NCBI GenBank assembly: GCA_017499595.2
Contig: JAFIQS020000014.1
Location: 62,001-126,000, forward strand
Direction: 5' to 3'
From: Psilocybe cubensis
Taxonomy: Eukaryota
DNA length: 64,000 nucleotides
Part shown: piece by piece, positions 13,048 to 32,967 of the stretch
Position numbering within the stretch: position 1 is the stretch's first letter
Layout of the letters: the number at the start of each line of letters is the position of its first letter
Notes under the pieces: generated by a model
What the model was told of the DNA's origin: nothing
The model's input: only the letters and a program-made list of their open reading frames with translations
Databases searched by the model: none
Translations under genes and position numbers: made by a program

Positions 13048-13087
13048 TAGGGATTGAAAACTTTGTGGGTTTCCTGAGGTGGATATG

Positions 13088-16000
13088 TTATGATGACAGG
13101 GCCAAATAGAGTTCTTTGTCAAAATATTTGTTTAATCGGAACTCGGTGCTAGTGGAATGACTGTTATGTGTAGTAAGGCTTCGCCTTGCCTTCTCGCCCA
13201 TCTGAGGGACCAGATCAACCAGGGAGCGTATTTGATTCAATGGTAAAATTCCACCCATAATGGTGTTATCTGTACGTTGACTTCGTTTTAATTTATACAT
13301 GCCGGTTATTGGCTCTGGGTAAGGTCCACGGATCGCAGAACCTAGAGACTGTGGCTGATTTAAAACCTCAAAACGTTGGACGTATGCGAGAAATCTTCCA
13401 GTAATATCGGGAGACACAGTACTGGGTGTCTCTCCGACAATGCGAAAAATAATACGAATGTCGACGACAGAATGGCCTACAATATTGGCTGGTCAACGGG
13501 GTTCGGAAAAAAGTCACAAAGAAGTACTACCTTGAAGCCCGCTGCGAGGCCACTCCTCAGATTCATCCACGTTTATGATTGCTGAATCGAAGTATCCAAA
13601 AGGATGTTTGTTAGATGGCGGATATGCATTAAGTGTGACTGCCTCCAGGATCTCATGAGGGTATTGGTACGCAGTCGACTGTATACGGACCTTATGCCAT
13701 ACCTCAAGTTTTGAATACGGCAACGGACAACCGGGAGGAGAAACACGCCTGCCAGTTATCCCCTTGATGTGATAACCTCGAGAATTGGTCTGTCTCGGAT
13801 TTGATTCCTTATTGATGAGTGACACATAATCGGCAATTGCTGGTCGTAGGTCGGGAATTTTAAAAATGCTCGCAACCTCGTCGATATGCAATCTTTTGGA
13901 ACTAGCATCCCTAGATAAATGGGCAACAACGTTTTTGCTGCAAGAAAATGTTCTGTAGGGGACTGGGCCTTCCAATACGCCACGCTCATAGAGACTAGCT
14001 TTGTAGAAGTAATCCACAATGCGATTGGACTTTGCTGATTGAAAGGTTGTCATCGGCATGATTGTTGAAAGAAGTTCTGACGTTGTGTCCATCACAACCT
14101 CGCCGTTTTCCTCCCCCTCATCCCCCTCCTCCTGCTCCTCCTCATCCGTAATTGTTGCAGAGTGTATAGCCCGAAAATCAATCCTCATTTCTCGTATAGC
14201 TGTAAACAAATCGAAATTGCGCAATTTGTCACGACGATCAAGGTATCGACAAACTTGAGGCTCGTATCTTTGATTATTGCTGGAACTGGAAGGGGCTTTG
14301 ACCACCTCGATATGTGCATGCTCTGTCGTGTCTGCAGACCATTGGATTGCACATCCATTTAGTCTAATTGCGTGTACTACACTTTGCAAAAACTCGAGTT
14401 TTGGAATATAGAAATTATCGATTGGGTTGTTTTTTTTTACCTCGACGTGCTCCCGCGTCAAGGATGGCTTGTTTATTGGCATGGAAATCTTGCAGTGCCT
14501 GCTCAATTCTGAGACACATTGCCTCGGAGATTGTTTGAGATTGTGCGAGATACCGAAAGTCCATCAGAGACCGGATGGCTAAGATAAAGGGTGTACTGAC
14601 TGTGTCTGCAATGAGAGCAACAATGTATCGCTGAACGTCCCGATGTTCCCTACCGGTCACTTGTTTCAAGGAAGAAATCCCTTCCTTGAAGTGTCGGAAA
14701 CCAGTGCGGTGCTGTAAAATCGAAAATCGAAAATCCAATTCGGAACCTCCGACTGCAGCAATGCACCATTTTGCATCATGATCCCAGAACATCTTGTGCC
14801 AGTGATGAAGGGGTTCAGGCGTAAGGAATGCAGAAGGATCAGACAAGGGCCAATCTCTCCAAAACGGTAGGTGAACCCCATTGAGACGGTGCTTTTTGCT
14901 TTCTTTTAGATATGGTTCGAGATGATTAGGGGGCTTAACATTGTTGATGGCCATGATGGTGTTGATTGTATGATCTGCAGTTCGGGAAGGGTGGCGAAAG
15001 GAATCCCCAAACGTCTCGTATTGTGCCAACGTCACAGAGGATGTGGATCCTGCGACGCAAGCCGCCAGAGCAGATTCTGGAGTATCAACGATAAGGGCAG
15101 CAAGCGGTGTAAAGCAGAAACGATTATTCCCCAATGCATCTGCCATGGTGGTTCCCACCCTCGCAGTTTGTTTGACCGATTCTAGAGCAATGTCCATGCA
15201 CTGGTGATATAGCCGTGCTGCCATCATCCCATTCACAGCTTTGGAGCGATGAAGAAACTTTGGTATGGGAAGAAGAACAAAAAGAAGGAATAAATGATTT
15301 GACGATTTGTTTCTAACGTTCATCATTATGTTGGCAATGCTGATAAGGCCAGGGTAGGCGACACGGCCTCCGGTCATGTTGGAAATGTTGGTTTTATCCG
15401 TGGAAATAATAGGAGGTATAAGTGTTGCTCCTTTTGGGAGCTGGTCCTTGGGAACCTTGTTATACTGTCGTCAAACTTGGACAAAGGCATTGCTACTAAC
15501 CTGCATAAAATGCGCAATGTCACCGCTAAACCACTCAGTGTATACCCGCATCATCTCGTTGCACTTGTCGAAGAGCTTGAATGGGCTAAAGTGCATGCTA
15601 TCTTGGAGCAAGGGACTGATGAGAAGCGCCTTGATACATTCCAATCCATCGCGGTAAAAAAGCGTTAGCTGATTTTTGCTTGGTATTTCTGGTATGATCG
15701 TTTGACTCTTCCACTGCGGACCAGAGGGAAGGATCTCTGCCCGGTTGCGTAGATCTTTTGCCGACTTGTAGGACAAGTTGAGTTTTTTTATCTATACGGG
15801 ATCGACTCAGCTGAAATAAATAATGATGGGAATGTACGCTCAATTACCAGTTCAAGTTTCAAAAAATCATTCAGCATTCCTACGCTCATGTCAGAGCGAA
15901 GTAGGAACAGGGAGAGCTCCCATTCATCTTTCGAGGCAAAAGGATAGTACAAATTTTCCGCCCGCTGGGGTTCGAATTGATCCTGTTTGAGCTGATCCAT

Positions 16001-16393
16001 GAATGTAAGGCCTGTTCCAAATGCTCTTCCAGCCCCGTTATAATCCTCCTTCACGTACGGATAGTTGTATTTTGATGCCTTGGGGGGTGGGTCATCTTCC
16101 ATCTCTGATGACGCGCCAAGAAAATTGTCGATATAGTCCACTTCCATAAAATTACCAATTTCGGGAGAAGGGTCTCGAGATACGGGGGTTGCTGATCTAG
16201 ATGTAGAGCTTGAACGATTGGACTGAAAATGCATAACGTTCTCATATTGAAAACGACATGCCGATTTTGGTTGATTGATGTGATTTTGGACATCTGCATG
16301 CTTAGCGAATGGCTTGTTGCATCGAGGACAACGCACACAGATTTCCTGAGTTCTCTTGCCCTTGCCCTTTCCCATGTTGAAACAACGACTCAT
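13088..16393 (-). CDS. Plavaka transposase with N-terminal zinc finger; +1 frameshift in a homopolymer at 14430-14438
   Basis: YYPFASKDEWEL, AEILPSGPQWK, RVYTEWFSGD, GATLIPPIISTDKTNIS, TGGRVAYPGLISIANI, PEPLHHWHKMFWDHD, QVTGREHRDVQRY, IPKLEFLQS, QWSADTTEHAHI, FRLNKYFD. Confidence 0.93.
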
Positions 16394-16864
16394 ACAAAAG
16401 CGAAGATACGAAAAAAAAACTGATAATGTAATGTTCAGTAACGTGCAGTGGGTCTATAAATGTTATCTGATTATGTCTCCGTTAATACAAACAAATTTCA
16501 CATGGGTTAGTATTCAACCAATCCGTAGTACAATCCAAGGAGGGCTTCGGAAGAGCTTTACTGTATATACGCACCAGAACAAAGACACTAACACATTTTT
16601 TGAAGTGGGTGGAAGAAGCATCAACAAACGTAAGTTAGTTGATTTCATTGACCTTGATGATAAATTCAAACGCACAGCAGTTACAGTAAAGCCAGAAGCT
16701 TTCATCCCAGCGAGAATTTGCGTATTGGTCTGGCGATACGAGCAGCACACAACTACAGATAATAAAACAATCGTCATTATGTTACAGGACATACACGCCT
16801 TTCAGTACTAAATAAAACATGGCATGTATGTAAATCAAGATGTGTGTCAATGTGTTGTACAATA

Positions 16865-19800
16865 TCAAAGTCGCCGTCGTTTAGAAGGCGGAACAGACTC
16901 TGATTCTGATGAAGAGATAAGCATTTGCGACGTAAAGGCATAATCAAACACACGTACTCGGATTTGTGCTCTCCAGCTTGACTTTCATGCCATCCAGATA
17001 CAGTTTATCCCTCACACTCGTACCAAGTTCCAGAATCTCCTTGGGAGTTCCTAGTTTGTGACGTGGTTAGTGAATATCCAAAGGCAGACACTGGTCCACC
17101 TACTCAATTGCGTTGAGGAATCCGCACAGGCATCACAGTCAATGAGAGTGATTACGGGTAACTTGAGCATCTTTGGGACCGAGGAACGAGGAAGCTGGTC
17201 GATACTGCGACATATAACCTTGTTCAATTCTCCGCTGCAGACGCCCTGAAGCTGGACAAAAAGCAAACTGGTGTCGGTACAGCAAGGGGCACCACCAATG
17301 TTGTTATGTTTGGCTTCTGCGTCGTAGGCTAGAATCATACGGGCATAGCGGCAAAGTATCATTTCATGGAACTTTTCTGTCGCCATGATATTTTGTGCAT
17401 CCTTGTTTTTGTCCGTCTCAATCATGTAGTGGATGGACTTCGTGCGATGACATAGCCACTCTAGAATAGCCAAGGCTTCGCCACGGGCAAAGATGCACGC
17501 CTTGCGCTCTTCGTCGCTCAGGCTGTTGGTATCCCACCGCATCCATGCGTCTAACTGTGCCGAAGTCTTGGTGGAGAACATCTGATCGGGATTTCGATAG
17601 GTCTCGTAGTCGAGCGCATTTGCCAAGATCATGCACACGCACAGAGCTATCAAGCTCGAGTATCCGGACTGCGTACTGTAGAATGGGACATGGTACATTT
17701 CATAAAAATCTGAGAGAAAATAGAAGAAAAGAATCAGATATCTTGTAGGAAACGGTAAAAAACCTCATACCTTCTGGGTCGCTGTCACCTTCAACCAAAA
17801 CCTTGTAGAACCAATGTATGGTTTGCTGCAGGAAAAATCGGGACGTTGAATGATTCGTATTCGTTGCCCTGTATCCAGCGGTAAAACAGTGAATGATTCC
17901 TGTCAGGGTTTCTTCGAAGGAAGTGGAGGAGTAAAAATGTCCGCCACGGCAAACCACTGAGGAGATAGAATACGCCATATGTAGAGTATTCGGTCTCATG
18001 AAGCTGTTTTTCAAAGTAGCGTCAATATAATCAAATGGGTAGGACATTCAAAAATCACATACAGTTCTGACTGGTTATCGAGAACAATCGCCTCGTAAAT
18101 CCAGTCTTGGTGGTGCGTTTCCCCGTAATCCAGCTTGTCTCCCAGAAATACACGGCGGTCAGAAGAAAGGTCAACATCCAACCGTCTGGGATACATGATA
18201 ATCCACAGCTTCAGTCCATGAAGAGGTTGGATGAAGGAACAGAAACCATTGGCATCGATATGGATATCTGAAAATGCCCCCTCTGTAGCTACGAGTCCCC
18301 ATGACATATCACCAAATGGGACGGGGGTACTATACTTCCAGCTACCAGATGTAGCCCGAAGAGCAGCCGCCTCAGTACTCAAGTCAAAAGAGTGAGCGCC
18401 TGCATGAGGTAAAGGGATGTCGAGGGCATTGAGGATCTTTCCTCTTTTGCCTTTCATCCTCGCTGCTTCCATGACCTGAGAGAGGGACCCACGCTTAATC
18501 CTCTCGATGGGGTTAGACGACATGGTCGACATATCTGTTACGGCCATTAGCATGAGACGCAGAAAGAAAAATCAAAACATCGAAGAGGAAACACACCTTG
18601 GATTGACCTGGTGCTCGTCATATCACCCATATGGCGACGTACCTGGCTGTAGAACTCGTCGGAGCAAGTTGAAATAGACTCCTCTTGAGAAGGAGACATA
18701 AGGACGACGTTCCTTTCAGAGAAAGACTCCATCAGATACATGGATTTCGTGGTGCTGCGGTCAAATACCGCAAAACATGATTCTTCGGGACGTGCTATGT
18801 GCAATGGAACTCCATCGACGTAGTCACTCTCGACCAATTCCAGAACCCTTTCAACACGATCCACGTCGGCTTGACTCTTGTTTGGAGAATAAATAAATGA
18901 CGAAAAAATCAATATCGAGAATGACTTACATGGGCAACAACGCAGAAACTTTTAAGTTGGCCACGACCGTTGTAGGTGGACCAAACTTTGGTGCCATACA
19001 CCTTCTCCGGAGTGCTGACGACATCAAGGGTGGTGTTGCTGTCGTACAGATCGACATCAATACACAGGTCGTCGTCCGAATCAAATGTGTCGGTAGCCTG
19101 CGTCGGCTTGCGTTTGGGAGGCCGCTTGGAAAGGCCCTGCCGGCCCTTCCCTTTCCCTTTCTGAGAGGAGTCAGCCGTGGTGTTTTTGCTCCTGTTTATC
19201 TGGGAAACAGGAGGAATCCTCAAAATAAGAGGAGCAGGAGGTGCGTTCTCCCCCTCCTTTTCGCCTTGGCTGTCTTCCAATGTATTCCTCTCCATGTCTG
19301 AGGAATCATTGTTTTGCTCTGGGCCTACCCCCTCTCCATCGACCGACATTCTGTCCTCCTGGACTGGTGGAACATCCCCTTGCCCCTGCTTCTCGGTCTC
19401 ATTGTCCGACGAACTGTCGTCTGGCCTTTCCTCCTCACCATCTTCTGACATTCGGTTCTCCTCGTCGGGTCGTTCTCCGTCTTGCCCCTGCTTTTCGCCC
19501 TCGTGAACTTCCGACATACGATTTGCCTCGTCAGAAGACCCTTCAGCTCCTTGTCCAGCCCCGCCGTCTCCCAAATTTTCTGGACCATTGGTATGTGGAC
19601 CATCCTCCATTTGATGGTCGACATCAGCTTGCTCCGGATCGACGTTCATCTCACAATCCCCTGCAGTTGAGGGCCCAGTATTCTCAGTCTGAAGTAGACC
19701 AGATCCAATATCATCACTCCGCGGCAAACCAGGTTGCTCGTCCGTGGGCACATCCTTGCCAGCCACCGAAGATGTGTCTTCCGGAGGCTGTATATCTGAG

Positions 19801-21428
19801 GTAGGGACCGTATTGTCCCCGTTCTCCTGTTGACCCATGCTGACATCCTTGCCAGCCACTGAAGACGTGTCTTCCGGAGGCTGTATATTTGAGGTAGGGA
19901 CCGTATTGTCCCCGTTCTCCCGTTGACCCATGCTGACCATTTCCGTCGTGTCCACTTCGTGATCATCGTCACCCTCCGCGTCTGCGTCGGACCCTTCACA
20001 GGTGGTTTTTTCACCATGATGGGAAACGGTCTGAAGTTGAGCTGTTTTAAACGGATTTAAATCATGTAATTGACGCAGACTTTGCTTATAACTTACCGTG
20101 TGGTTCAGTGCTGCGCCTTGCTAGGTTAGAATTTGCTGTAACCTCGGCGCTGCTCGTTGACGCTGGCCAATTATTAGTTTAAATTGTTATTTTGTTACAG
20201 TACGTAGAACACACATATGAAAAAGTGAAACGCGGGATCTTGTGCAATTACCCGCTCGCATTCCATCCAGCAGTCTGAGATAACAAGTTTATATAAGGCT
20301 GACTGGATGTCGCAATTTTGCGCTGCAATGATTTTCCAAATTTCCATCTCCACTTCACGCAGAACACGGGGGCGACAATTACCGAGCGCTTTTGAGGCCT
20401 AAAGGAGTGCGTTAATCCAAGTTAAACTGGGAGGATGTGGATACACCTACTTTAAGCAGCTGCTCCCGGTCACATTTCTTAGAATACCAAGATTTATTCA
20501 CAAAAAGAAGGATGGGGGATATGAAAAGGGCGACATGCAGAGGAATTTTTAAATGAGATGGCGTGACCTCTGAGAGGAACAACGCAGCATCAGGATGGCC
20601 GCTTGCACTAGGGTATGTTGAGCAGATTGTATCAATGAATAGAGGAAAGAAAACTTACTAGAGATTTGCAAGAGTAGCCGTGTCCGTTGGAATGTCTGGT
20701 AGAACGTGTTCATCGTCCTTCATACCGCGCATTCCTGACAAGATTTGGTAGTGTAGCGAGGCACAGTACACATTCCCGATTATTTTCCCCACAACACCCT
20801 TGAAGTGGTTACGCGCCAGACAGAGTAATAGCGTTGATTCCGAGGGCCCGCCCTGGGTGAAAGCGGATGACGGCGTGTCACTGATAGAAGGGGTGTTGAT
20901 GTTTCTGTGCGACTTAGAGTCGGCTCTGAGGATGCGCTTCCTGGCAGAGCAGAGCATTGCCGGCCAGTCCTTCAAGTCATCTACAAGCTACAATAATTGT
21001 TTGAAAATTAAGAATTAACATTGAGTGACTTCATGATCGCATACCTTGAACCGTGAAAATATTTCCTTAGTTCTTGTGCTGGCCTGTATTTCATTCAGGG
21101 GCACGGTCACCGGCAACGATGGTCCAAAGGCTGCTGGCCACAACGCTACGAGATCGAGTAGACGGTATGCTGCAAATAAGCTACCCGCCTGCTCCCATGT
21201 AGCCGAGGTTACGCAGGGTGTCTCTACGATGCTGTTCTGAAGGGCAGCCAAGCTTTGCCTATACTTGATGGCCGCTCGCATGCTCGATGATGAAACATCG
21301 TAATTCAAAAAGGTGAAGTCCTCATATCGTCGGAGGAAATCCACCATCCTCTACAGAAACTTGATATTAGTACCATAAATGGCAATCCAATTAAGACCTA
21401 CGCGGAGTGGGTGCGACTCTGGCAACAT
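16865..21428 (-). CDS. Large multi-exon JmjC-domain (2OG-Fe(II) oxygenase, demethylase-like) protein with long acidic linker (Plavaka cargo)
   Basis: WGLVATEGAFSDIHIDANGFCSF...GLKLWII...FMRPNTLHMAYS...CRGGHFY gives an HxD...H metal triad. Predicted start MLPESHPLR|RMVDFL and end SKRRRL*. Joining of all exons into one gene is inferred. Confidence 0.8.
19751..19936. repeat. 93-bp in-frame tandem duplication inside the JmjC gene
   Basis: MGQRENGDNTVPTSNIQPPEDTSSVAGKDVS occurs twice with few substitutions. Confidence 0.92.
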
Positions 21429-21753
21429 GTTTTCCAGAGTCTGACGAACGACCTGCGTTTCGAAGGGAAACGCCAGAATTTCTTCAGCTTGGAGTCGGGC
21501 AACGGGGGAAATCTTCTGGGCTTGCACTACAAAACTTCAACGTCTCACCCTGCATTCTATTTCTTTGGGTACTTACTTTTTTTTGTGTGTTTTTTTCTGG
21601 TGTCTCAAATTTTCAACTAGATGAATTTTAACTGAACGAAAACTATTATAGAGTGTCTAGAGTATTGTCTATGTCTATTTTATTAGAATGTATGTTAAAT
21701 CTATGGGGAGGGGTACTACGCTATGACGAACGGAAAGAAAAACAATCAAGTTG

Positions 21754-21930
21754 GAAACACGCTATTTCCGGAGCGATTCTTTAGGGTAGGTTTCCCGTCC
21801 TGAAGTCACGAGTTGGTTAAAAAAACGCCCCCTTACATCAGGCTGATGTAAGGGGGCGTTTTTTTAACCAACTCGTGACTTCAGGACGGGAAACCTACCC
21901 TAAAGAATCGCTCCGGAAATAGCGTGTTTC
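21754..21930. repeat. Perfect palindrome: 88-bp arms, 1-nt loop at 21842; imperfect extension 21718-21967
   Basis: GAAACACGCTATTTCCGG...CCTTACATCAG-G-CTGATGTAAGG...CCGGAAATAGCGTGTTTC; outer ACGCTATGACGAACGGAAAGA pairs with TCTTTCCGTTCATCATAGCGT. Confidence 0.97.
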
Positions 21931-22070
21931 TCACCATATGTTTTCTCTTTCCGTTCATCATAGCGTCTTATCATAGTAATAGGTTGTGTAGTATCTAAAA
22001 ATAAATTATCACAAGTTAAGATGATAAATTAAGTGAGATGAACATCGATTAACAGTCTTTAAGACCCACA

Positions 22071-24430
22071 ATGTCTAGTTATAAACGCAGACGACTTGAC
22101 AGCCTAGGCAACCGCACAGTGTGTACTAATCCAACCCTCCATCTAATCACTAACTTCAGGGAAATTTAATTATGATCTCAAAAAATCAGGACATTAATCC
22201 CTTCATAGACATTGAAGCAGCGGTTTCCGATGATGATGAAAGTTCGGAAGAGCTTGATTATGAAGGGGGCCAACTACGTATGTTCCAATAATTTACATAT
22301 ATTCTGCTCAATATGTACTGATGCTAATGGGTTCTGACATACAGTGAATGATAACGATGAATACTCTGAGGATGAGGAACGTGTTGCACACTCTCGGCTA
22401 TATCATGCCATGCAAAATACAGATAACGCTGATGAATGGAGCGATTTGTTGCCCATGCTTCTGCCTTCACGCATGAAAATTCGTCCTGACAATGATATAG
22501 AGCCATCTAGTTCACGAGAACTTATACAGAAATATGGCAATCCCCAACCAGGAGGACTTGGTGATAATAATTATATGCCTTCCGCGACTGATATCATGTA
22601 TGAAATAGGTTGCAAGGTACGCAAAAATAATATAAGTCTTCAGTCAGCATTTATTGATCACCTTACGAGTGATAGGTTGGACGCGAAAAGGCCGTCGCTT
22701 TCAAAATTATGCAGATGTCAACGAACCCTACATTTCCCATCATCCTTGCCCGGTCTGTCTTCGCTCAATCCTCAATTCCTGGGAGAATCTACGTCGAGGC
22801 GCCATCAATGCAACATGCGCATACGTTAGCCTGCCTCGTTAGAGAGCTTAATCCGACACATTTAGTTAGGCTATCCTCGGAGAGATGTATGGAGATCCTA
22901 TCTCATCCCCCACCCTCACGCCCTGAAGACCAATCGTGGGTCAAGGTTGCTGGAAAGCGTAAGGCTTGGACGACCTACGCAAATGCTACCGGCCTTGTGT
23001 TCACATTCCAGGGTCGGAAAAGTGTTGTTCTTATCCCCAGACCTCCGGACAACATCAAGAAATCGCACCTCGACAGGATATTCCAGGATGGATTTATTAT
23101 CACGGATTTCGACGCCATCGATCTCAAATATCTTTCCAATGTCCTCCCAACATCGTCCGAGTTGGAGCAATTTCGCGAGTGTCCATTTGTAACGACGGAG
23201 ACCTTAGCGCAAGCCTCGAAAGCCATCTCCATGACTCGACTGAAACGATATGATCGAGTCAAAATTATTGGTGGAGAATACTTAGGTCTTTTTGGAACGG
23301 TCAAGAGTGTTTCTGACGCTGAGGTGGAAGTGCACATCCCCTCCCAAGGTATAACACAAGCAGTTGCACTACACGATCTACGTGCAGCTTTCCAGATAGG
23401 CGATAGTGTTGAAGTCGTTGAAGGGGATCACAAAGATCTCCATGGATGGGTGTCAGACTTTGATGGAAGATCTGTTTGTATTATCGCCCCAGAGCACGAA
23501 CGCGAAGTAGGTGAACTGTCATTCTCTTTGTCTCAGTAGTGTTCAACACATTTTTCAGGTCATTGTGCCCATCCACACAGTCATATTCTACGTCCCCCCT
23601 GCCCATGCTACTCTTCGCCCGCGAAAGCGTCATTCGTCAAAGCTTGGAGAAAGAGACCACAACGACGTCTATATAGGTTTGAGTGTCATCGTTGTCGGGA
23701 ATAATACATTCAAGGGGTACTATGGCATCGTTAAAAGCACTACCCCCGACGGCTTTGCAGACGTTGAGCTGGAAGCTCGTAACCAGAGGGTGGAACGTAT
23801 TAAAATATCACATTTAATTATACAGTATGTGGTTTCACTTGATTCGTTGACTGTCAGGTGCTTACTGACATTGTTTCAAGCAACCGAGAACATATAAATT
23901 CCGCTCAAGACCCCGGGCCTTCTGGTGGAGCAACTCCAATGCCGTCCACAGTAGCAAGTTTTCTGTCTCCTGCATGGAATCCGTATTCAGCAATACCTGT
24001 ACACTCGGCGGTGGAAATCGCAGAACTACCCTCAACCGTCGCTCACTGGCTAGATACGAAATACGATAAGCTGAAAGGATTACGATTAAAAGTCGTAGAC
24101 AAATCCAAGGGCGACCATCAAGTGGCGATGGAACTTCTCAGCCTTACCGACGATACTGCCCACCTAGCATTACTGGGACGTACACTGACATTACCGAAAT
24201 CAGTGTTGTTTCCAATTCATCCTGTAAAAAAGGACGACTTCGTTACACCGCTTGAGGGCGATTCAATGGGGATTATATTCAGGATACGATCAATAGACAA
24301 GGATATTTGCGTTGTACATAAATATCCCGTTACTCGTATGAAACGCGGTGATACATTCCCAACTTTTCCGACAACATCTTTGATTCAAATCTTCCCCCCG
24401 TCCCGTGGTGTCAAAGTTGTAAATATGTAG
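22071..24430 (+). CDS. Divergent SPT5-like transcription elongation factor (Plavaka cargo)
   Basis: Acidic N-terminus NPFIDIEAAVSDDDE; NGN-like YEIGCK|VGREKAVAFKIM...SVFAQSSIPGRIYVEA; KOW motifs DRVKIIGGEYLGLFGTV, GDSVEVVEGDHKDLHGWV, VIVVGNNTFKGYYGIVK; residual CTR-like GGATPM...SPAWNPYS. Confidence 0.85.
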
Positions 24431-24597
24431 GGTGCAGCATTACTTGTATTTCGAACACGGACTTGTAGACATATACGGGTTTTATGTCATTCTATTTAAG
24501 TGTATTTCGGCAATCAACAGTGCTAATGGTTCGTAATGTGTTGATCGTCTTGAACTTAAGCCACCACCACCACACCAAATTGTTGCCTATCTTTATC

Positions 24598-24953
24598 ATG
24601 AACCATTCCAATAGCAACAACGCTTCGCAACCTCAAAGTCGCCGCCTCCCTAGCATACCCGAAGAGGCAGAGTTCTTCGTTTTAGGTCTATTTTCATGTT
24701 TTAATCCACCTTCCTCTAGAATCAAGGCATAGAGGCCGTTAAAAAGGCTCTTGACCAATTTCAACTCACTGAACAGAGGTGTCTAGAAGTTCAGGCAGAG
24801 CTACGTTGTTATATGGACGACATTATGCGAGCATATAAATCCAATGAAGATCTTCTGTTTGAAACCCAGCTCGAAATCGCCCGTCTACGGGTATCCCTCA
24901 TTAGTCGGGGAATACCTATTCTAATGCACCCTCAGGATAATCCGCGATCATGA
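24598..24953 (+). CDS. Small hypothetical coiled-coil protein, 2 exons (Plavaka cargo)
   Basis: MNHSNSNNASQPQSRRLPSIPEEAEFFVL|...EAVKKALDQFQLTEQRCLEVQAEL...ETQLEIARLRVSL...PRS*. Confidence 0.5.
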
Positions 24954-25224
24954 TAGGTGCAGTCTTTTCCCCTCTGAGATGTAACTTTACTTAACTCTAA
25001 GTAGGACATGGAATCTGACTATAATGTATATGTGATATATTGTAGTAGATAGGGGTACTGTTTCAGTACCTGTAATTTCTATATGGCACGATATATTTTT
25101 GACTGATGTCCGTCGCCTTAAATTTTGAAAAGAGGCTAATTTCGCATACCTCCGGATCGTAGCTTGACATAATTCACCACCCCTTATCTCTATTTCTGCA
25201 TTACAACCGTCAAACCAGCCCAAT

Positions 25225-27966
25225 ATGCCACCTAAAGGATCCAAAAAGAAAAAGGCGGTTGTCAATGCCACGGTTGAAGGTATCATCTATATATCCTCAT
25301 TACATCCGCATACTTAATGTTTTATCCATCTAGGACAAGAGGTTGAACAGGGTCCGAGCTCCGTGGCAGAAAACGAGCCACCTCAGGCTCCTGAAGCAGG
25401 TCTGTACTAGCATTTTCTTTGTTGAGATTCACTGAACTCTTTATTAAAAAGACCCCAATGGCCGTCCTATCCGAAGCACCCGTGGTCTTGGTGGAGTAAA
25501 TGCTCGGCAGGAGAAAACATCTAACATCATTTTTATTGACTTCGAGAAGGCTGGGAAGAGGAAGTCAAGGGCCGCCAATGTGGATACTAGCGCCATGCCT
25601 GAAAATGAGATGGCGCCTCCCTTGAAGAAACCTCGCAATGGGGTGAGTCTACTGTTCTAATCTTAAATTTGCTATCTTCCAAGCACGTCTAGGTTACCGT
25701 TGTGTCGCATGTAGGTCCCCCTATTCAAATGCAACCAAGGCCAACGCCTTCAGTTGCTCCTTGGGATGTCCAACAAGTCCAACCAAGCCCACGACAATCT
25801 CAGGGTGCCCCCCCTCCTGTCCAGATCCAACGTGCAGCTCAGAGAAATCAGGAGCACTCAGAGCTTGATCATGCTGTCCAAAGACCCACTGCCCCCATCC
25901 AGCGCCCCGCTGCTCCGGTACAACAGCCAGCACATCCTGTCCCGCGCCCCGTACAACATGCAGCACATCCTGTCCCGCGCCCTGTACAACACGCAGCAAA
26001 TCCTGTTCAGCGTTACGCTGCCCCTGCGGCAGAGAATTCTGTCCAATACTACGATGCCCCCGTACAACAACCAGTGCATCCTGTAACACAACATGCCCCC
26101 ATACAACAGCCAGTGCATCCAGCAGCCTATAACGCCCACCAAGAGGCTAGCATCAGCCATCAAGACGAGGAGGAGCAACAAGATTACGAAGGCATAGAGC
26201 AGGAGGAAGATGAGGAGGAGGAAGAGGGGGATAGTGACGGTGAAAGGCGATCTGAGGAAGCATCAGGGGACGAATGCATGCAAGGAATTGATGAAGAGAA
26301 TATTGGGGATGAAGAAGCTCTCCAATATGTCGACGGTGATGAAGGTTACGACGACGCGGGTCAAGATGATGAAGAGCCTGCTGCCCAGCGTTGGTTTAAC
26401 TCCACCTTTATGTCGTGTTTGCTTACCACCTATGTTTGACAGTGGTTGATGAAGTTTCCGATGATGAAGAGGAGAGGAGAGCAAGGGCATTGCTCCGCCA
26501 GCCTTCCCCCCATGTAATCATTTCTCTGCTGTATTTAATGTCTAGCTAATGTATTATTGATATAGGTTGTGGAAGTAGAGGATGTTCTTCAAGAACACCG
26601 TCGTCGTAATCGGGCGAACAAGCCACCTCGCCCTGAGGCATTGCGCAAGGCGGCTGTTTCGCAAGGAGCCGTATCCCAAGGTTTGACAAGGGAGAACAAC
26701 GAAGCATCTGACGATGATGAGGTGCTTGGTGAGGCACACATCGCTCATAAGAAGTCCAGTACTTCTTCTGCTAGGGAAGTATCCAAGCATTCAGTTGCAT
26801 CCTTTACTGGTTACTGGAAAGATGTGCTCAAAATTGCACGCAAACTGATGTGCCTGTATGTAGTAGAGGAGGTCCCCTTTCCCACTCGGGAAAATCACTT
26901 ATTAGTCGCCGATGGATGTGTGAAGATGGCAGTAACCGTGTTTGAAAGAATGAACACGGATAAAGTGTTGCCTGATAGTAAGTTCTGTCTTCTGTGATTT
27001 TAGTTAATTGGTTTACATAACTTTGCAGAGAAAAAAACGCTCCTAGACAGGAATACCGCCGTAACGGTATATTTTTAGCGTGTTCTTTTAAGGATATCGT
27101 ACTAACGTGTCTGTTCTCATTAGGCATTTGTCTACGCGTCAACCTTCCGGGGAAGACTGAAGACGATGATCAGACCCCTGGTCAAAAATGCGTATGGCCT
27201 CGAAGTCCCGTCGGAGGTCATCGCCGCGAACCCCAATATGTTTGAAAATCAGATGGGGGAGATCGAATACATCAAGGACAGGGTAGCATATTGGCTACTC
27301 AATGGTAAATACCACCGGGGTGTTGCCAAAACCCGAGTGAGTTCGCCGTCCATTTTACCTGGCTTACCACTCATTGATTTGTTTCCAGTATCACGATGTC
27401 CCATTTGGACATCCTTTTGTGAAGAAGATCTGTCTGGACTTCTTCTACCATCCTACAAAAGGGGTTGCAGTCCCCATCAAAGGTCTGGAGACAAAGACGG
27501 ATTTCTTCAAGACATCGCTTCCCCACAAAGCATTTGCGCTTGTGGCCAGTTGTGTAGTTCTGATTTCTCTCCTGCTATTGGCACTGCCTTGCTAACAAGC
27601 ATTTTGCTGTAGATCCACAACTGTCTTGAGGAGTGGAGGGATGGGATTGACCCTGCAAGAGGTGGTCCGTGTTCGGGTATTGAATTCAAGGGAGAGGAGT
27701 ACTCCCTGAGGTATGATGCCTGCATGTTGGTTGCAGCAGAGGCAGAGAAGGATACCTTGAACCAAGGTCCTCGCTTGGCTCGCTTATGTAGGGAAGTGGC
27801 TGAGGAAGGATGGTGTGTATCTTTTTTTATTCATTTCTTTCTTTGCATCATTTAGATCTCCATAATCAGTGCTATTATGAGGCCTACGAAGAACCCCCCC
27901 AACCCTTATAGGATGACTCTCCATTCTATCCCACAGGAGGAACTAGATTACGGTCCAGAAGGGTAG
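25225..27966 (+). CDS. DUF6532-like protein with basic, P/Q-rich and acidic N-terminal regions (Plavaka cargo)
   Basis: ASTFRGRLKTMIRPLVKNAYGL, PFGHPFVKKICLDFFY, LPHKAFALVASC|IHNCLEEWRDG, EFKGEEYSLRY; many short introns; internal 33-bp QHAAHPVPRPV repeats. Confidence 0.75.
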
Positions 27967-28234
27967 TTGGGTGAATGAGCGGGGCAGCTGCCGGGTGTGG
28001 ATTAGAAGATACCATATTTAGATCGTCACGTATTAATAGTTATGCATCTACTAATAGAAACATGTTTGGTCCGATCCAAACATAGATTATCTATTTTTAA
28101 AATTGCCCATTTTAGTCAAAAATGGTTCGGTTTTCAGTGTGATATTGGCACTTGCAGGAATAGCCACACAACACTATACAAATGAAAGTGGATACTATAT
28201 ATGCCTTTGTACCTATTTGCAGTGTGTTATGATG

Positions 28235-28350
28235 TGCTACAAATCTGTGGTAGCATGCTACAAATCTGTGGTAGCATGCTACAAATCTGTGGTAGCATGC
28301 TACAAATCTGTGGTAGCATGCTACAAATCTGTGGTAGTATGCTACAATTT
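28235..28350. repeat. 21-bp tandem array TGCTACAAATCTGTGGTAGCA (5 copies plus partial), subterminal in the Plavaka element
   Basis: Seen directly; unit junctions form the palindrome GTAGCATGCTAC. Confidence 0.95.
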
Positions 28351-28598
28351 GTATGTCAGTTGTATACAGAGGGGTATGGACCATGGTAAGCATGCTACAC
28401 GCCGCTACACAGCACTCGCGTTACAATACAGATCACTACAGAGTACCATGTCACGTTGGTACCAAGCTACAGGTACATCAGTGTGTGTTACCCAAATGGG
28501 ACCGTTACTATGGGCACTACAGAATTACGTATCACTACGGATCATTACCTACTTGGCCCCGGTATTGCTGATGTCTATTTGATGATGTATTCTCCTAG

Positions 28599-31500
28599 GT
28601 TATGGACTTTAGCGAAGCCGAAAGAGAAGGCTTTATTTTGGGGTATATCGAGTTCTGGCAGCAAGAACCAACCAACACCATTTCACATGATGACCTCCGA
28701 ATTGCGGCTACGCGTCTTTTAAGTGGATGTTTAGAGCATTATCGAAGGGGTGTTACGCGTGTTAGCAGGATTGGCGGCGTTGTTCCTGTTGAAAAAGCTG
28801 AGGATTTCAAGAAACGTGCATTAGAGCTTGTTGACCTACCTAACGCTGTAGAGTTTCAGTTGCAAGCAGCAAACCTTGTACGCGATTTTCCAAAGCTGAA
28901 TAGCTGGATGGCGTGGTGGACACGCCCTTCTCACGCCTCTATGCTTTTTTATTCCCAACGGAAAATGGACATAGATGTATGGAAGTCGATTCCGAAGACT
29001 ACAAATGCCGAGGAAGCAATGCACTGGAAAATGTACTGTGCTGCTGGACGGGATCATGACTTTATGGCTGGAATGTATGCTCTTCATGCTGTTGCGCAAT
29101 ATTTTGAGCGAGTATATAATGCAGCACTTGGTGAGTAATTGTATTTTCTGACAGAGAACTATATTTACATTTTAATTACAGAGGGAAAACCTATACGGTA
29201 CGGCAAGGCCGAACCGTGGAAATCAACAAAAGAGAAGCTTGGTCGTACTAAGCCTACTCGCGCACCCGACGCTGCTACCCAAAAGCGGAAACACAATGAC
29301 GGTCGCCCGCCAGATACCGTTAAAGAACTCCTTGGACAAAAGCACAAAAAACAAAAGCTTATTCAATCAGATAACTTGCAAGAAGAAGCGGCCCTCACAG
29401 TTTTAGAAGATGGCAACATTAACCGCTATTCAAAGACGTTAGACGACACTCCAGCAATAGTTCGGGAGCCCTCCCAACATCAGGTTGTCGCTTCTAGTCC
29501 ACGTACTTCTGCACATCCCAACCGCTCGCCAATTGCATCTTTTCCATGGAAAGATAACTCATGCTGGCTGGATGTGGCTCTTACTCTTCTCGGCGCTGTA
29601 AATGCATCGTTTGATTCGTATTTTTACAGCATATGTGGACCAAATTTACCGGACGACTCAATGCTTCGAATACTTGGACAAACACTACAAGAGTGCCAAA
29701 ATCTTAGACGAGGACGGATATCACCAAAATCACTTCTTATTGGGCTAGGAAAGCAGCGAGACCTCTTCCGCAGGTCACTTAAAAGCCAGAAATTCATTAC
29801 AAAGTTGACTTCATTTGATTCAGTTTTCGTAAGTTCACGTTTTCTTGTGTATATATTATGGGCGCTTAAATTTGTTAGGGTTGGTTCAACGATGTTGTTC
29901 AAAGGGAACAACACTCACAGTGGTACAGATCAGCGGCATCTCTCCAGATATTGACCACATCGATCCGCTTCTGTACAGGATCCGAGGCTATTGGGGGCCC
30001 TCATGTAGAACTGTCAACAAAGCCACGGAGTGCGCGTTTTTTGCAGCTAATGCCTCGGGACTATGACCAGTATGGCGGAGATTTGGAAAGATATTTTTCC
30101 AATTATATCTCGCTGGATCGCTGTCCAACACCTTCCTACATCTCTTTTGACTCCATTGATTGTGCACCTGAGCGGGTCAAATGCTGGAGAACAAAAGATG
30201 GTGTCTGTCTTTGCCCAGGAGAACGAGAAGACATACGGGACTTGGTTATATCCCTTCCTTTTATGCTATACTTTGAGCTGGCAAACGATACTGGCGAACC
30301 TAGTCTGTCTTCTTGGGATCTTTCACCAATTCTAAAGGCTGCATCTGGCGCTCCAGACGATTTTTCAGATCTTGTATACTATCTGGTCGGGCTAGTGCTT
30401 ATTGATTCCTCTGGAAGTCACTTTAGTGCCAGATTTACGCAGAATGGATTGGTCTACACCTACGACGGACTTGAAAATGGCGGAAACTGTGTTGTGGAGG
30501 AGAATGCCTCAATCGAAACACACCTTTCGGGAAAAGCGCCTATACTTCCTGATGGTTGTTGTGTTCATGCTATTATCTATGCGCACGAGGGAAAAGAGTC
30601 TGCACAAGATGCATTCTTTAATACACGACACAAATTGATCTCCGAAAGATTCAATATTCGATTCATATGCTCGATTGTTGGATTATACAGCCCACAGCAG
30701 CTTACTTATACGTCACCCGACTATGAACAGATGGATCCTTCTAAACAAGATTGGATCAGCAATAGAAAACTCGCGGAATCAACAGAAGAATATCTTACCC
30801 GCTCTAAACGCAGAGCAGTTGCTGTAAACAAGAAGACCACACCAGCAGAAAAAATAGAGCTGGATCCCGAATCCGAAGAAGAGACCTTTAACATCTCTAA
30901 AAGTCTTCTTACTCCAAGCAGTCCAGCACGCGGATCGACCCTAGTACTTGGCTCCACTTTGGGTAGTCCAGCCGAGTCAAAGTCATCACATTCGCGGGAA
31001 TCTTCACCTTGGTCTAGCTTCTCAATAAACTGCCGATGCGGTTTGATTGGAGATGGAAACAAATACTATCTTGATGACGAACATGGCGCGGCTGTCCAGT
31101 GTGACTGGTGCAAGGACTGGTCGCACATAGCATGTCAGCGAAATGGACGGGCAAGCAATCTGGGAATCACAGACGACTTTATTTGTGACTCGTGTGATGT
31201 TAGAAATCATATTATACCACGTTCGAGTGCAGAACGGTAAGCATGTCATACTCTCTGTTGTATTTACCAAGTTGCTTATTTTCCCTAGTATGCAATGTGC
31301 AGAACGTATTGGAGACAGAATATGTCTTGCAGACCGTCTCAAGTAAGTTAAATACATTATACTACATACCAATACTTAAAAATTTTAACAGAGAAGGTCG
31401 AGGTGCCCTTTGCCTTCATGGTGAATTCTGGTACCCAGTTCGCATCATCCAACGAGTTTCAAATGGGTGGCGCGTGCGGTGGTGGAGAGATAATCAATAT

Positions 31501-32421
31501 GCCACGATGCCTCCTGGAGTGGGTTCCCAAATTACATCCATAGCTCCAGAAGATCATGTCGTGGATTCTCTATGGATGAATGCAGAAGGACGAAGACAAA
31601 TACGGGTGAGCTCTACGGATTCTATTGCCTTTTCTTGACTAAAAAGACAACCAATATAGCTTGGAAAATGGATTCACGCACATGAAGTAAAAGATAATGA
31701 CGAGATATTATCTGATCCAAGTTCTATCCCCTTCACTGAAGACATTGACCGAATCCTCATGCCGCATATCAAAGTTCTGAAGGCGCTTCTCAACAACAAT
31801 CGCAAATTCCTTGCATCAAAAACGATTCCTGCAAAGAAGTGGCATGACGAGCAGAAGAAAATGAAGAACTCAAAGTCCTTCCTGAAATCTGGTGTTATTC
31901 CATTTACTGGTCAGTTAACAATTATTGAACGCGCTCAGATTTCGAACTGGTTTGAATGCAAAATCGCCAACAACGACATTAAAATGCGAATTAAATGGGT
32001 ATCCTTCCCGCCTCTCGCCCATGCTTTTACTCTTTATATTGCTCATCACCTCAAGCAAAATCCAAGGTTCACAGACCTTTTGGATGACCGTCTTATTGAA
32101 GAAGCATGGTCAGCTCAATGCTGGGAACGACCTACCTCCAAGAACGAAATTGATGTTGATAGGGACTGCCTACAGCTTTTTGAAGAAGAAATTTTTGAAG
32201 TTTCGGCGCGTGCCGGAGTTGCAGGACACTGCCAGTGGGGACTCGATGTGGGACCACATCAAGATGGGTGGAACCCATACGGTGGACTTCCAGATTACTT
32301 CAACTTTGGTGATAGAGAAGGGGATGACAGTGAACTCGAGGTATGTGGTTTAATATTTTATTCATACAAGGATACTTGCTCACCAATGGCAAACTAGCCC
32401 GGGCCTCAATTCTTAGCTTAA
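28599..32421 (+). CDS. GCM-domain MULE transposase, 3' exons: DDE core, USP-like peptidase, PHD finger, Tudor-like barrel
   Basis: VMDFSEAE (D), GCLEHY (CxxH), PKTTNAEEAMH (E); WKDNSCWLD Cys box; YYLVGLV...SHFSARF...YTYDG His box; CRCG...QCDWCKDWSHIAC...FICDSC PHD; FWYPVRII...WRVRWW; QWGLDVGPHQDGWNPY. Confidence 0.85.
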
Positions 32422-32624
32422 TACACGATCATCCATTAAATAACTTTTAAATTTACTTCTATTCAACTATTTACACCACTATATATTACAATATGACTTT
32501 TTTAGTGGGCCAAGCCTTGTTCAATGTAGAGGAACAGTGACGACCAAGAAAGACGACACAAATTTGTTTGAAGTCAATTTATCCCACGCTCCATCACCCC
32601 GACCTGCCACAACACGGTTCGAAC

Positions 32625-32765
32625 CCACGCACGCACATGCACGTCCCTCAGCCACTTCCGCACTTCCCTCAGCCACTTCCGCACTGCCCTCAGCCAATCG
32701 CGCACGTCGCACTGCCCGCACTTCCCGCACTGCACTTCCCTTGCACTTCCCTCGCTTCCCCTGCA
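32625..32765 (-). repeat. Right subterminal GCACTTCCC-type repeats of the giant MULE
   Basis: Repeated CCCTCAGCCACTTCCGCAC and GCACTTCCC units adjoining the right TIR. Confidence 0.85.
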
Positions 32766-32967
32766 AGGTAAATTTCTTGTGCCCATCCATACCCACCTAG
32801 ATTAGTGGAATTACACTTGAATCATATATTTGACGCATGTTTCGACAAATTATTGTGATTGCAGAACTCATGCTTACACCTAGTGGGAGTACTCAGCTTG
32901 CGTACAAAGTACTAGACGGTGATCTCAGTAAAACTCACTCTGTATATTGGTGCATGTATGCGGGGTA

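Follow-up and report, generated by a model that had tools for sequence, protein, structure and literature searches.

A shortened SPT5-like gene carried by a high-copy PlavakaB transposon in the mushroom Psilocybe cubensis

Two nested transposons

We analysed a 64,000-nt window of the Psilocybe cubensis genome (assembly GCA_017499595.2, contig JAFIQS020000014.1, positions 62,001–126,000 of the forward strand); all positions below count from the first letter of this window. An SPT5-like gene on the forward strand (22071–24430) lies there within two DNA transposons, one nested inside the other. The outer element, an unclassified DNA transposon at 7817–32784, measures about 6.7 kb without its insert and has an imperfect 26-bp terminal inverted repeat (TIR; GGGCA...CCTTGCAGGG), subterminal 10-mer arrays (GCACTTCCC) and a 9-bp target-site duplication (TSD; ATCCATACC) at 7808–7816 and 32785–32793. 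Read depth is about 100× at 7669–8335, and loose read ends at 7816/7817 lead into several flanks. The forward-strand gene of this element, encoding a PHD-finger protein of 1300–1700 aa, is split by the Plavaka insertion into two parts (9217–10264 and 28575–32364), across which homologues map colinearly; the PHD finger is its sole Pfam domain.

The inner element, 18,278 bp long at 10296–28573, is nested inside what is probably an intron of this outer gene. When the insert was excised in silico, no spanning open reading frame (ORF) appeared in the outer gene, probably because the insertion is intronic. At the right end of the insert, six of six intact homologues of the interrupted gene resume at 28575. 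A reading of 7817–32784 as one 25-kb Plavaka unit was also considered and dropped, because the published Plavaka termini and TSD do not fit it and because read depth showed nesting.

Plavaka elements were reportedly defined by Iyer et al. in PNAS in 2014. We assign the inner element to PlavakaB because its termini (CATCAG...CTGATG, with a match of 12/15 between the two ends) and its 2-bp TSD (TC, at 10294–10295 and 28574–28575) fit the published description of termini of 5′-CATCA..TGATG-3′ with a TSD of 2 or 3 bp (PMC12730594). A repeat search for the inner PlavakaB TIR gave nothing convincing.

The PlavakaB element is recently amplified and present in high copy. In two raw-read runs with the same species label (X16 and X17), depth steps at 10296 from about 13–46× outside to about 520–600× inside, with the flanks at about 15–18× in three of four flank bins; the element, SPT5-like gene included, stands at about 30–35 times flank depth in both runs. 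At the same position, 326 and 410 loose-end reads lead into many different flanks. The copies are close to one another in sequence: 48,039/55,600 reads (X16) and 45,397/52,586 reads (X17) are at least 99% alike, and no indel present in at least 10% of reads is listed within 22071–24430. The original prediction had called the gene transposon-borne, and the TIR and TSD boundaries, the interrupted outer gene and the elevated depth bear this out. The idea that the gene is a host paralogue, ordinary or domesticated, found in a repeat-rich region by chance is scarcely credible: NCBI records do label one P. cubensis copy as ‘Transcription elongation factor SPT5’, but the element boundaries and depth contradict such a reading, as does a left PlavakaB end that abuts many different flanks.

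Sharing these boundaries with the SPT5-like gene is a Plavaka transposase gene on the reverse strand (13517–16453), which encodes a C2H2-like zinc finger, a Plavaka domain (Pfam, 217.9 and 61.4 bits) and DUF6830 (155.4 bits); the match that places it in the family spans 13517–15791. The window copy of the transposase has either a frameshift of one base or an error of assembly: the T9 run at 14430 is one base shorter in 484/512 and 476/543 reads, and removal of one T there joins two transposase ORFs into one of 651 aa. The transposase and SPT5-like genes are divergent, and their shared intergenic region contains a palindrome (21718–21966; 124-nt arms, 93% complementary) about 100 bp upstream of the start codon of the SPT5-like gene. 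Its centre, CATCAG-G-CTGATG, repeats the terminal CATCAG motif and differs among copies, with joints and loose ends at 21841–21843.

The element also contains a cyclin-like ORF on the reverse strand (11407–12327), which we treat only as a lead; it scores 18.1 bits against a cutoff of 21 for Pfam Cyclin (PF08613), reaches 0.93 to PF08613 clusters in an Atlas feature search and has no PDB sequence match. Three consecutive forward-strand ORFs at 27124–27852 form a DUF6532 remnant in three frames (Pfam 23.2, 17.0 and 14.6 bits against 24). Pfam found no TET/JBP match within the PlavakaB element of the window.

An intact six-exon gene

The SPT5-like coding sequence runs from the ATG at 22071 to the TAG at 24430 in six exons (22071–22118, 22190–22277, 22345–22616, 22676–23506, 23559–23824 and 23881–24430), separated by five GT..AG introns of 52–71 nt, and encodes an intact protein of 684 aa, here termed mini-SPT5. 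The original prediction had noticed no stops across this interval; that holds once the five introns are spliced out, which leaves zero internal stops, but not for the unspliced sequence, which has many. Relatives have the same intron borders. The window protein is 98–99% identical to three P. cubensis gene models, which represent at least two contigs. In public records, some copies from Agrocybe and Cyclocybe are labelled ‘Chromatin elongation factor SPT5’, and the public gene models of SPT5-like copies are mis-spliced or split. Two possible RNA runs with the same species label (X18 and X19, Logan contigs), uninformative either way, gave spliced contigs only at a flank gene (5891–6655) and none in 10296–25000.

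A trimmed SPT5 architecture

From its N-terminus onwards, mini-SPT5 consists of an acidic region, an NGN domain, KOW1 with its linker, KOW2, KOW3, KOW5, one SPAWNP unit and a tandem resembling KOW6–KOW7; KOWx–KOW4 and the CTR repeat array are absent. Pfam was run on the exon translations, and scores are given in bits against each family cutoff. The protein belongs to SPT5/NusG by virtue of an NGN domain followed downstream by KOW domains, both of which match above the Pfam cutoffs, and it lacks the full KOW series, the repeated CTR and the single copy of a canonical SPT5. All of the best 24 fold matches are SPT5 chains, every KOW domain is modelled as a β-barrel, and a profile of the family is colinear with residues 187–521 of human SPT5 (E = 1.4e-58, far beyond chance).

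The acidic region (exons 2–3, 22190–22616) was part of the original prediction and is confirmed by a count of 30 D+E against 13 K+R in residues 1–136; its Spt5_N score of 16.9 lies below the cutoff of 24.2. The end of exon 3 holds the first NGN strand. The main part of the NGN domain (22676–22900; Spt5-NGN 25.7 against 22.4) aligns to the NGN of human SPT5 and is modelled with pLDDT of 87–98. It is the most diverged domain, keeping 7/21 canonical-invariant columns in the window copy and 9/21 in the family majority, and with so few of these columns kept, canonical docking is not assured. KOW1, which has a linker insertion (22931–23236), aligns colinearly with KOW1 plus linker of human SPT5 and keeps 10/20 canonical-invariant columns in the window copy versus 16/20 in the family majority. 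KOW2 and KOW3 (23246–23506) match the Pfam families KOW2_Spt5 (49.7 against 28.9) and KOW (32.2 against 22.3), align to human SPT5 residues 420–521 and have among their fold matches 4ytl, a structure of SPT5 KOW2–KOW3. The KOW5-like domain in exon 5 (23706–23792; KOW5_SPT5 28.7 against a cutoff of 27, with scores of 31.2 and 28.7 across the exon translations) keeps 8/11 canonical-invariant columns, which is also the figure for the family majority.

The SPAWNP unit (23966–23983), read directly, sits in a low-confidence, probably disordered linker (pLDDT about 45–55) and corresponds to the CTR vestige that had been noticed from the sequence; Pfam CTD has zero matches in the exon translations. 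A SPAW[D/N/E]P unit occurs once each in 11/18 full-length family members, and five canonical Agaricales SPT5s have 4–6 [ST]P.[WY] units. The C-terminal tandem KOW pair (24059–24406) comes from an AlphaFold model, Pfam having zero matches on exon 3 and exon 6: residues 61–170 of exon 6 are modelled with block-mean pLDDT of 89–97, and their best PDB fold match is 5ohq, human DSIF KOW6–KOW7 (E 4.2e-6, TMt 0.72). For KOWx and KOW4, there is no Pfam match above cutoff in mini-SPT5, and the canonical columns are largely gapped, 5/7 and 6/7, respectively, in the window copy and 7/7 and 6/7 in the family majority. The description of the protein as a shortened SPT5 homologue thus stands, with the missing parts now located.

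These losses bear on the idea that mini-SPT5 is a decoy or dominant negative, titrating Spt4 or occupying Pol II without a CTR platform, which would blunt a host SPT5-dependent process, such as co-transcriptional silencing or termination, rather than act as a positive elongation factor. The loss of the CTR array and KOWx–KOW4 with retention of the other docking modules is what a decoy would look like, and the gene dosage is high, but a dominant-negative SPT5 acting across the genome from about 30 copies should be a burden on the host. Further, the divergence of the NGN at most canonical-invariant positions argues against efficient Spt4 titration, and the conservation of the CTR-like unit in 11 of the 18 members suggests a retained docking site. 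We consider a decoy unlikely.

A fast-evolving family under purifying selection

mini-SPT5 is one member of a rapidly evolving family, which stands apart from host SPT5 and is under purifying selection. A first homology search (‘longer’ lengths) gave no match; relatives comprise 358 cluster representatives at E ≤ 1e-3, and a locus search with a 7-sequence alignment gave 33 related loci. The mini-SPT5 clade (20 rows, SH-aLRT 100) falls outside the fungal canonical SPT5 clade, and all of its named members are Agaricales. Canonical and short SPT5 forms are both present in Hypsizygus marmoreus and Tricholoma furcatifolium. Together with the high copy number, these two species speak indirectly against the window gene being the sole SPT5 of its genome; a canonical-SPT5 search found none from Psilocybe among the best 120 of 809 matches. 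The main exon is uninterrupted in 21/33 related loci, and the KOW5 exon was recovered by tblastn in 19/33. Across 65 family pairs, which are not independent, dN/dS is 0.15–0.62 rather than near 1, with the youngest pairs at 0.5–0.6.

These data speak against a functionless passenger, that is, a captured copy of a host gene that is carried along while decaying. Transposons do capture host genes, and KOW1 of the window copy is more degenerate than that of the family majority (10 versus 16 of 20 columns); yet the 684-aa frame is intact over six exons with conserved intron borders, no common indel is found among about 30 copies, and the dN/dS range is that of constraint. The family extends, with its 358 cluster representatives, over many Agaricales genera, and the position of the mini-SPT5 clade outside the canonical fungal one shows that the host gene was not captured recently. 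A decaying passenger is, in our judgement, improbable.

Association with a transposase varies among the relatives. Among nine long related loci scanned, an EnSpm-type transposase lies near the SPT5-like gene in two metagenome contigs (L019 and L026), in the form of Transposase_21 with DUF4218, 2–6 kb upstream and on the same strand; in the other seven, a recognisable transposase near the gene is absent. Of the other ORFs of the window (159 tested, at least 90 aa), none has a match at E ≤ 1e-5 in the 33 related loci, so the tie to one element type is not universal. An antisense ORF (22978–23427) did match related loci, which is explained by its overlap with the SPT5-like gene. Outside their SPT5 parts, P0006, P0021 and P0035 have no match to the window, and one Agrocybe gene model has the SPT5-like protein joined to a Tet_JBP domain.

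A part in transposition itself would fit some of these observations. In this alternative, the KOW/NGN protein partners the Plavaka transposase, either as a TnpA-like nucleic-acid-binding accessory or by tethering excision or integration to Pol II as it transcribes. A second protein is common in CMCT-superfamily elements (En/Spm TnpA/TnpD), the SPT5-like gene adjoins EnSpm-type transposases in L019 and L026, and in the window it is divergent to the transposase around a palindrome centred on the terminal motif. However, most related loci have no transposase nearby, Pfam finds no sequence-specific DNA-binding domain in mini-SPT5, and the protein keeps the entire SPT5 domain order, whereas simple DNA binding would call for less. 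A cofactor of this kind seems to us distinctly unlikely.

Comparison with known systems

Canonical eukaryotic SPT5 is the large subunit of DSIF. mini-SPT5 shares with it the acidic N-terminus, NGN, KOW1 with linker, KOW2, KOW3 and KOW5 in the same order, as well as a KOW6–7-like tandem and one CTR-like unit. It differs in length (684 aa versus about 1000–1200 aa), in an NGN that has diverged at 14/21 canonical-invariant columns, and in being a multi-copy, transposon-carried gene in a separate, fast-evolving clade.

Specialised relatives of SPT5 offer partial parallels. Plant SPT5L/KTF1 (RDM3), a Pol V-associated factor of RNA-directed DNA methylation, is encoded by the host, silences transposons and has a long GW/WG AGO-hook region. 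Like mini-SPT5, it is a specialised SPT5 paralogue with an NGN and KOW core and a link with transposon control, and the family profile matches 8hyj at E 1.3e-26. Unlike KTF1, mini-SPT5 is encoded by a transposon, has a single GW/WG dipeptide in its 684 aa and scores much closer to canonical SPT5. With bacterial RfaH and other specialised NusG proteins, the likeness is one of concept, namely a paralogue of the universal NusG/SPT5 factor devoted to particular long operons, many of them gained by horizontal transfer; RfaH is a two-domain protein with a fold-switching KOW, recruited by the ops DNA signal, whereas the architecture of mini-SPT5 is eukaryotic and multi-KOW.

Two further cases concern transposon-derived DNA and transposon cargo. 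Paramecium Spt5m, with Spt4m, is described as development-specific and as acting in non-coding transcription and the elimination of transposon-derived DNA (PMC8934623). It resembles mini-SPT5 in being a specialised SPT5 paralogue connected with transposon-derived DNA, and it differs in being host-encoded, in having its own Spt4 partner and in not residing on a mobile element. TET/JBP dioxygenases are encoded by fungal DNA transposons, including PlavakaB, and have been proposed to serve in escape from silencing (Kojima 2025, PMC12730594). They too are host-type chromatin or transcription genes that fungal transposons of these kinds have as cargo, but they belong to another protein family and work by another mechanism. 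Spt5, KOW and NGN are absent from the main text and one supplementary file of that article.

A possible element-encoded elongation factor

We favour, tentatively and at a little below an even chance, a reading in which the SPT5-like gene is a conserved cargo gene of the recently amplified PlavakaB element and encodes a trimmed SPT5 that acts as a surrogate on Pol II. By analogy with the host factor, mini-SPT5 would replace SPT5 on RNA polymerase II, docking through its NGN, KOW1-linker, KOW2–3 and KOW5 modules. In canonical SPT5, these modules hold DNA and RNA clamped to the elongation complex, and the NGN binds Spt4 and the Pol II clamp. Because KOWx–KOW4 and the CTR platform are absent, polymerases with mini-SPT5 would connect to CTR-dependent partners in another way. 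The element would probably gain by having its long, intron-rich genes transcribed processively or by escaping co-transcriptional silencing; the TET/JBP dioxygenases of related transposons would be a parallel.

A more general proposal, which we find conceivable and rather doubtful, is that CMCT-superfamily transposons of mushrooms (Plavaka and EnSpm-like) encode their own Pol II elongation factor, a eukaryotic counterpart of RfaH. Such a factor would displace host SPT5 on the polymerases that transcribe the element and uncouple these polymerases from CTR-dependent host pathways, and this uncoupling would secure expression of the 18-kb element and evade co-transcriptional silencing. The cyclin-like gene of the element may belong to the same elongation-factor module.

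Implications

SPT5/NusG is, to our knowledge, the sole transcription factor common to all cellular life, and SPT5 is normally essential and encoded by one host gene. A transposon-encoded SPT5 family in gilled mushrooms is apparently undescribed: in the literature searched, no paper on a transposon-encoded SPT5 was found. At a practical level, the family is an annotation issue, with some copies carrying SPT5 host-factor labels in public records. It is also a natural deletion series of SPT5, with no KOWx–KOW4 and a single CTR unit, for probing those parts of the protein. If a conserved, selected, transposon-encoded SPT5 holds true, SPT5 would be added, beside the TET/JBP dioxygenases, to the chromatin and transcription toolkit of fungal transposons, and mobile elements would be able to supply a part of the Pol II elongation complex themselves.

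A selected SPT5-like gene inside a transposon

The SPT5-like gene at 22071–24430 (plus strand) is intact, is carried and amplified by a PlavakaB-type element, and belongs to a conserved family that is under selection and distinct from the host SPT5. Across this interval the ORF map shows four successive plus-strand frames, as a gene interrupted by short fungal introns would give. With five GT..AG introns (52–71 nt) set by eye on the sequence and against relatives, six exons join into a 2055-nt coding sequence whose 684 codons include no internal stop. The ends named in the original prediction, 22071 and 24430, are exactly an ATG and a TAG; its remark that no stops were noticed is right for the six-exon coding sequence and wrong for the unspliced interval, which contains many.

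Pfam searches of the exon translations bear out the predicted NGN domain and several KOW motifs, with Spt5-NGN (25.7 bits against a cutoff of 22.4), KOW2_Spt5 (49.7 against 28.9), KOW (32.2 against 22.3) and KOW5_SPT5 (31.2 and 28.7 against 27) all above cutoff; Spt5_N is below it (16.9 against 24.2), and exons 3 and 6 have no Pfam match. Human SPT5 187–521, spanning NGN, KOW1 and its linker, KOW2 and KOW3, is colinear with a 34-sequence family profile (E = 1.4e-58), whereas the match of the profile to KTF1 (8hyj), a plant Pol V factor, is weaker (1.3e-26). The window protein has one GW/WG dipeptide and thus lacks an AGO hook. The AlphaFold model of exon 4 (22676–23506), the main exon, has a mean pLDDT of 89.5, and its best 24 PDB fold matches are without exception SPT5 chains in Pol II elongation complexes (24/24). 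Exon 5 is KOW5-like by Pfam, and exon 6 is modelled with about 120 confident residues (10-residue block means 89–97) in two beta-barrels, the top fold match being the human DSIF KOW6–KOW7 tandem (5ohq, E 4.2e-6, TMt 0.72). The low-confidence linker between KOW5 and this C-terminal tandem holds a single SPAWNP (23966–23983), the one-unit vestige of the CTR that had been claimed. A single SPAW[D/N/E]P is present in 11 of 18 full-length relatives; canonical Agaricales SPT5s (n = 5), by contrast, carry an array of 4–6 [ST]P.[WY] units.

Conservation was scored in an alignment of the window protein with 19 canonical SPT5s and 17 relatives, at the columns invariant in at least 90% of the canonical sequences. 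The window protein and the family majority keep, respectively, 7 and 9 of 21 such columns in NGN, 10 and 16 of 20 in KOW1 plus linker, 3 and 5 of 6 in KOW2, 6 and 6 of 13 in KOW3, and 8 and 8 of 11 in KOW5. None of the 7 KOWx columns is kept by either (5 gapped in the window protein, 7 in the family majority), and both keep 1 of 7 in KOW4 (6 gapped in each). Among the matches listed, almost every canonical Agaricomycete SPT5 lacks KOW7_SPT5 (PF23287) in its precomputed Pfam list; chytrid and mucoromycete SPT5s have it, and the transposon-borne family retains a KOW6–7-like tandem. This contrast may bear on the origin of the family or may be an effect of HMM sensitivity.

A PlavakaB-type element nested in a second transposon

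The prediction that the gene is transposon-borne is upheld by read depth, termini, target-site duplication (TSD) and colinearity. The minus strand encodes a Plavaka transposase at 13.5–16.5 kb (Pfam Plavaka 217.9 bits, DUF6830 155.4 bits). According to PMC12730594, PlavakaA elements have TGT..ACA termini and 2-bp TSDs, and PlavakaB elements CATCA..TGATG termini and 2–3-bp TSDs (section 3.2.2). Raw reads of two DNA runs bearing the same species label (X16 and X17), placed on 5001–25000, give summed depths of about 15–18x in three of four bins of the flank (5001–7668), 13–46x over 8336–10336, and 430–600x (mostly 520–600x) in all bins but one of 10337–25000; the bin over a palindrome dips to about 355–390x. 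At 10296, 326 (X16) and 410 (X17) reads have mutually discordant upstream parts (consensus agreement 0.37–0.38), and the sequence therefore has many different flanks. This end reads CATCAGTAAATCC; its best partner ends at 28573, reads CATCAGCAATACC inward and matches it at 12 of the first 15 bases, and TC flanks both ends. In all six intact homologues of the protein encoded by the outer element (P0160 and five others, 1282–1749 aa), colinearity runs through 9217–10264 and resumes at 28575–32364 with no residues lost. On the depth step, the termini and TSD, and this colinearity, 10296–28573 is an 18,278-bp PlavakaB-type element inside a second transposon of unclassified type, its right end being set by the terminal and TSD match and the interrupted gene; the insertion point is probably an intron of the outer gene. 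PlavakaB consensuses in one supplement of PMC12730594 likewise start CATC..., and one carries AAATCCCGGAT near its end, comparable to AAATCCGGAT in the window.

The SPT5-like gene lies well within this inner element, divergent from the transposase. Between the divergent gene sets, about 100 bp upstream of its ATG, is a near-perfect palindrome (21718–21966, 124-nt arms). At its centre the palindrome reads CATCAG-G-CTGATG, a repeat of the terminal motif; this centre differs between copies, the reads showing extra letters, joints and strand switches. Also inside the element is a cyclin-like minus-strand ORF (11407–12327; PHO80-type PF08613, 18.1 bits, below cutoff; atlas score 0.93), adjoined by tandem duplications (11887–12500 and 12536–12933); its company with the SPT5-like gene is suggestive, as a lead only. 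At 28214–28368, roughly 200 bp inward of the right end, some six copies of a partly palindromic 21-bp tandem repeat, TGCTACAAATCTGTGGTAGCA, may form a subterminal binding array, judging from sequence.

The outer element (7817–10295 plus 28574–32784) ends GGGCA...TGCCC, with imperfect 26-bp terminal inverted repeats at 7817 and 32784 and subterminal arrays of the 10-mer GCACTTCCC. This 7817–32784 pair was also considered as the Plavaka ends; it clashes with the published Plavaka termini and TSDs, and read depth settled the matter. The TSD of the outer element is ATCCATACC, identical left and right; its 9-bp length suggests a Mutator-like element, but Pfam found no MULE domain there. Its 1300–1700-aa protein has a PHD finger as sole Pfam domain and homologues in many Agaricales, and its terminus (7669–8335) is covered at about 100x, some 6 times flank depth, with several different flanks.

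The entire window is repeat-rich. Dispersed direct and inverted repeats of 75–91% identity surround the nested elements (1528–1917 with 32964–33335, 4639–5690 with 51650–54223, and 47917–48854 with 54572–55500). A further element is probable at 34318–41845, where inverted GCAAGTGC / GCACTTGC arrays lie at 34.3, 41.0–41.2 and 41.8 kb and plus-strand ORFs of 259, 387, 710 and 203 aa follow one another over 35198–39865 without a Pfam match. At a flanking gene (5891–6655), two possible RNA runs gave contigs spliced at GT..AG introns 6026–6082 and 6404–6450, so both do contain RNA of this organism.

Many young copies

The inner element stands at about 30–35 times flank depth in X16 and X17 together. 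As this ratio is taken against a flank that differs from these strains at many fixed positions, and not against the overall depth of the runs, the copies per haploid genome could be roughly half that number. The copies are young, because most reads are at least 99% alike (48,039 of 55,600 in X16; 45,397 of 52,586 in X17). Seven indel places are listed for the whole 20 kb; within 22071–24430 no indel reaches 10% of reads. At 14422–14430 the window has T9, and 484/512 and 476/543 reads are one base shorter (T8); dropping one T at 14430 fuses the Plavaka and DUF6830 ORFs into a single 651-aa exon, so the transposase exon is intact in most copies, and the extra T in the window is either a true frameshift of that copy or an assembly error in the homopolymer. 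A joint at 14738–16113, in 27 and 22 reads at a depth of about 500, marks a 1374-bp internal transposase deletion and hence internally deleted derivatives in a minority of copies. Among variable places over 5001–25000, C>T and G>A prevail (36 + 37 of 142 in X16, 37 + 37 of 134 in X17), a bias that, with regions pooled, would be consistent with methylated cytosines in repeats having been deaminated.

The window protein differs at 5/329, 1/183 and 8/603 positions from public P. cubensis gene models, which lie on two contigs (4.19 and 3.62 Mb). In these models (P0001, P0151 and P0152) one copy is divided between two models and the other lacks the KOW5 exon; the latter model bears the name 'Transcription elongation factor SPT5'. 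Annotating element copies as host genes probably feeds errors into Agaricales proteomes.

A family apart from canonical SPT5

With the main exon as query, an exhaustive HMMER search gave 358 cluster representatives at E ≤ 1e-3, of which 89 reach ≤ 1e-10; self matches aside, the best are 30–41% identical. Pfam analysis of 40 of the 150 matches listed separates two groups. The canonical group (5 of 40) has NGN scores of 76–87 bits in 4/5 and 56 in the fifth, KOW1_SPT5 in 5/5, KOWx in 3/5 and CTD in 1/5, and matches the query at only about 1e-7 to 1e-10; its four named members are plants and a chytrid. Proteins of the short group are mostly about 680–730 aa, with weak NGN scores and generic KOW matches. 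All 23 named family members examined are from Agaricales (Psilocybe, Agrocybe, Cyclocybe, Panaeolus, Gymnopilus, Galerina, Hypsizygus, Tricholomella, Tricholoma, Arthromyces and Ephemerocybe), with two to four distinct members in several species. Both forms occur in Hypsizygus marmoreus (canonical P0282; short P0075 and P0300) and Tricholoma furcatifolium (canonical P0269; short P0051).

In a maximum-likelihood tree (41 rows, 875 columns), 20 short proteins form one clade (SH-aLRT 100) outside a clade of 18 canonical, mostly fungal SPT5s (support 91). Terminal branches are 0.22–1.63 for short proteins against 0.06–0.25 for canonical Agaricales SPT5, and the deep placement of the short clade may reflect long-branch influence; the tree does exclude recent copying from an Agaricales host gene.

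Relatives at 33 metagenome loci are 31–48% identical over the best segment (31–39% for longer matches). Intron positions are shared, since database matches of about 300 aa start and stop at the exon-4 borders, and the main exon is unbroken in 21/33 loci. dN/dS is 0.15–0.62 and mostly 0.2–0.3, rather than near 1 (Nei–Gojobori, 65 non-independent pairs, dS 0.03–1.5). A passenger gene, simply carried along by the element, is the rival explanation least compatible with these selection data. The other 159 ORFs of the window have no counterpart among the 33 loci. Among 71 ORFs of at least 150 aa in nine long loci, Pfam identified an EnSpm-type transposase (Transposase_21 plus DUF4218) 2–6 kb upstream on the same strand in two loci (L019 and L026), a Helitron-like domain in a third (L032), and nothing recognisable near the gene in the other six. 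An SPT5-like protein is fused to a Tet_JBP domain in one Agrocybe chaxingu model and to an RTC4-like domain in two gene models, all of which may be merged neighbouring genes.

In the literature covered by full-text searches, no transposon-encoded SPT5 is described; an earlier mention is possible in Iyer et al. 2014, where Plavaka was reportedly defined. Spt5, KOW and NGN are absent from the main text of the Plavaka/TET paper and from one of its supplements (PMC12730594). An incidental published passage, uninterpreted by its paper, may be an earlier sighting, because its wording matches the Pfam description of Spt5-NGN.

A possible stand-in for SPT5

In solved DSIF elongation complexes, the modules kept here hold DNA and RNA on the polymerase. 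From its domain make-up we infer that the SPT5-like protein would replace SPT5 on Pol II, where the modules it keeps would let it ride the polymerase. That NGN is the most diverged domain speaks against a simple surrogate, and action as a decoy or as a transposition cofactor are rival readings. For a protein standing in for SPT5, the missing KOWx–KOW4 region and CTR platform would couple the polymerase differently to CTR-dependent partners. Such altered coupling could aid the element's own expression or let it escape co-transcriptional silencing, in analogy to the TET/JBP cargo that related elements carry (PMC12730594).
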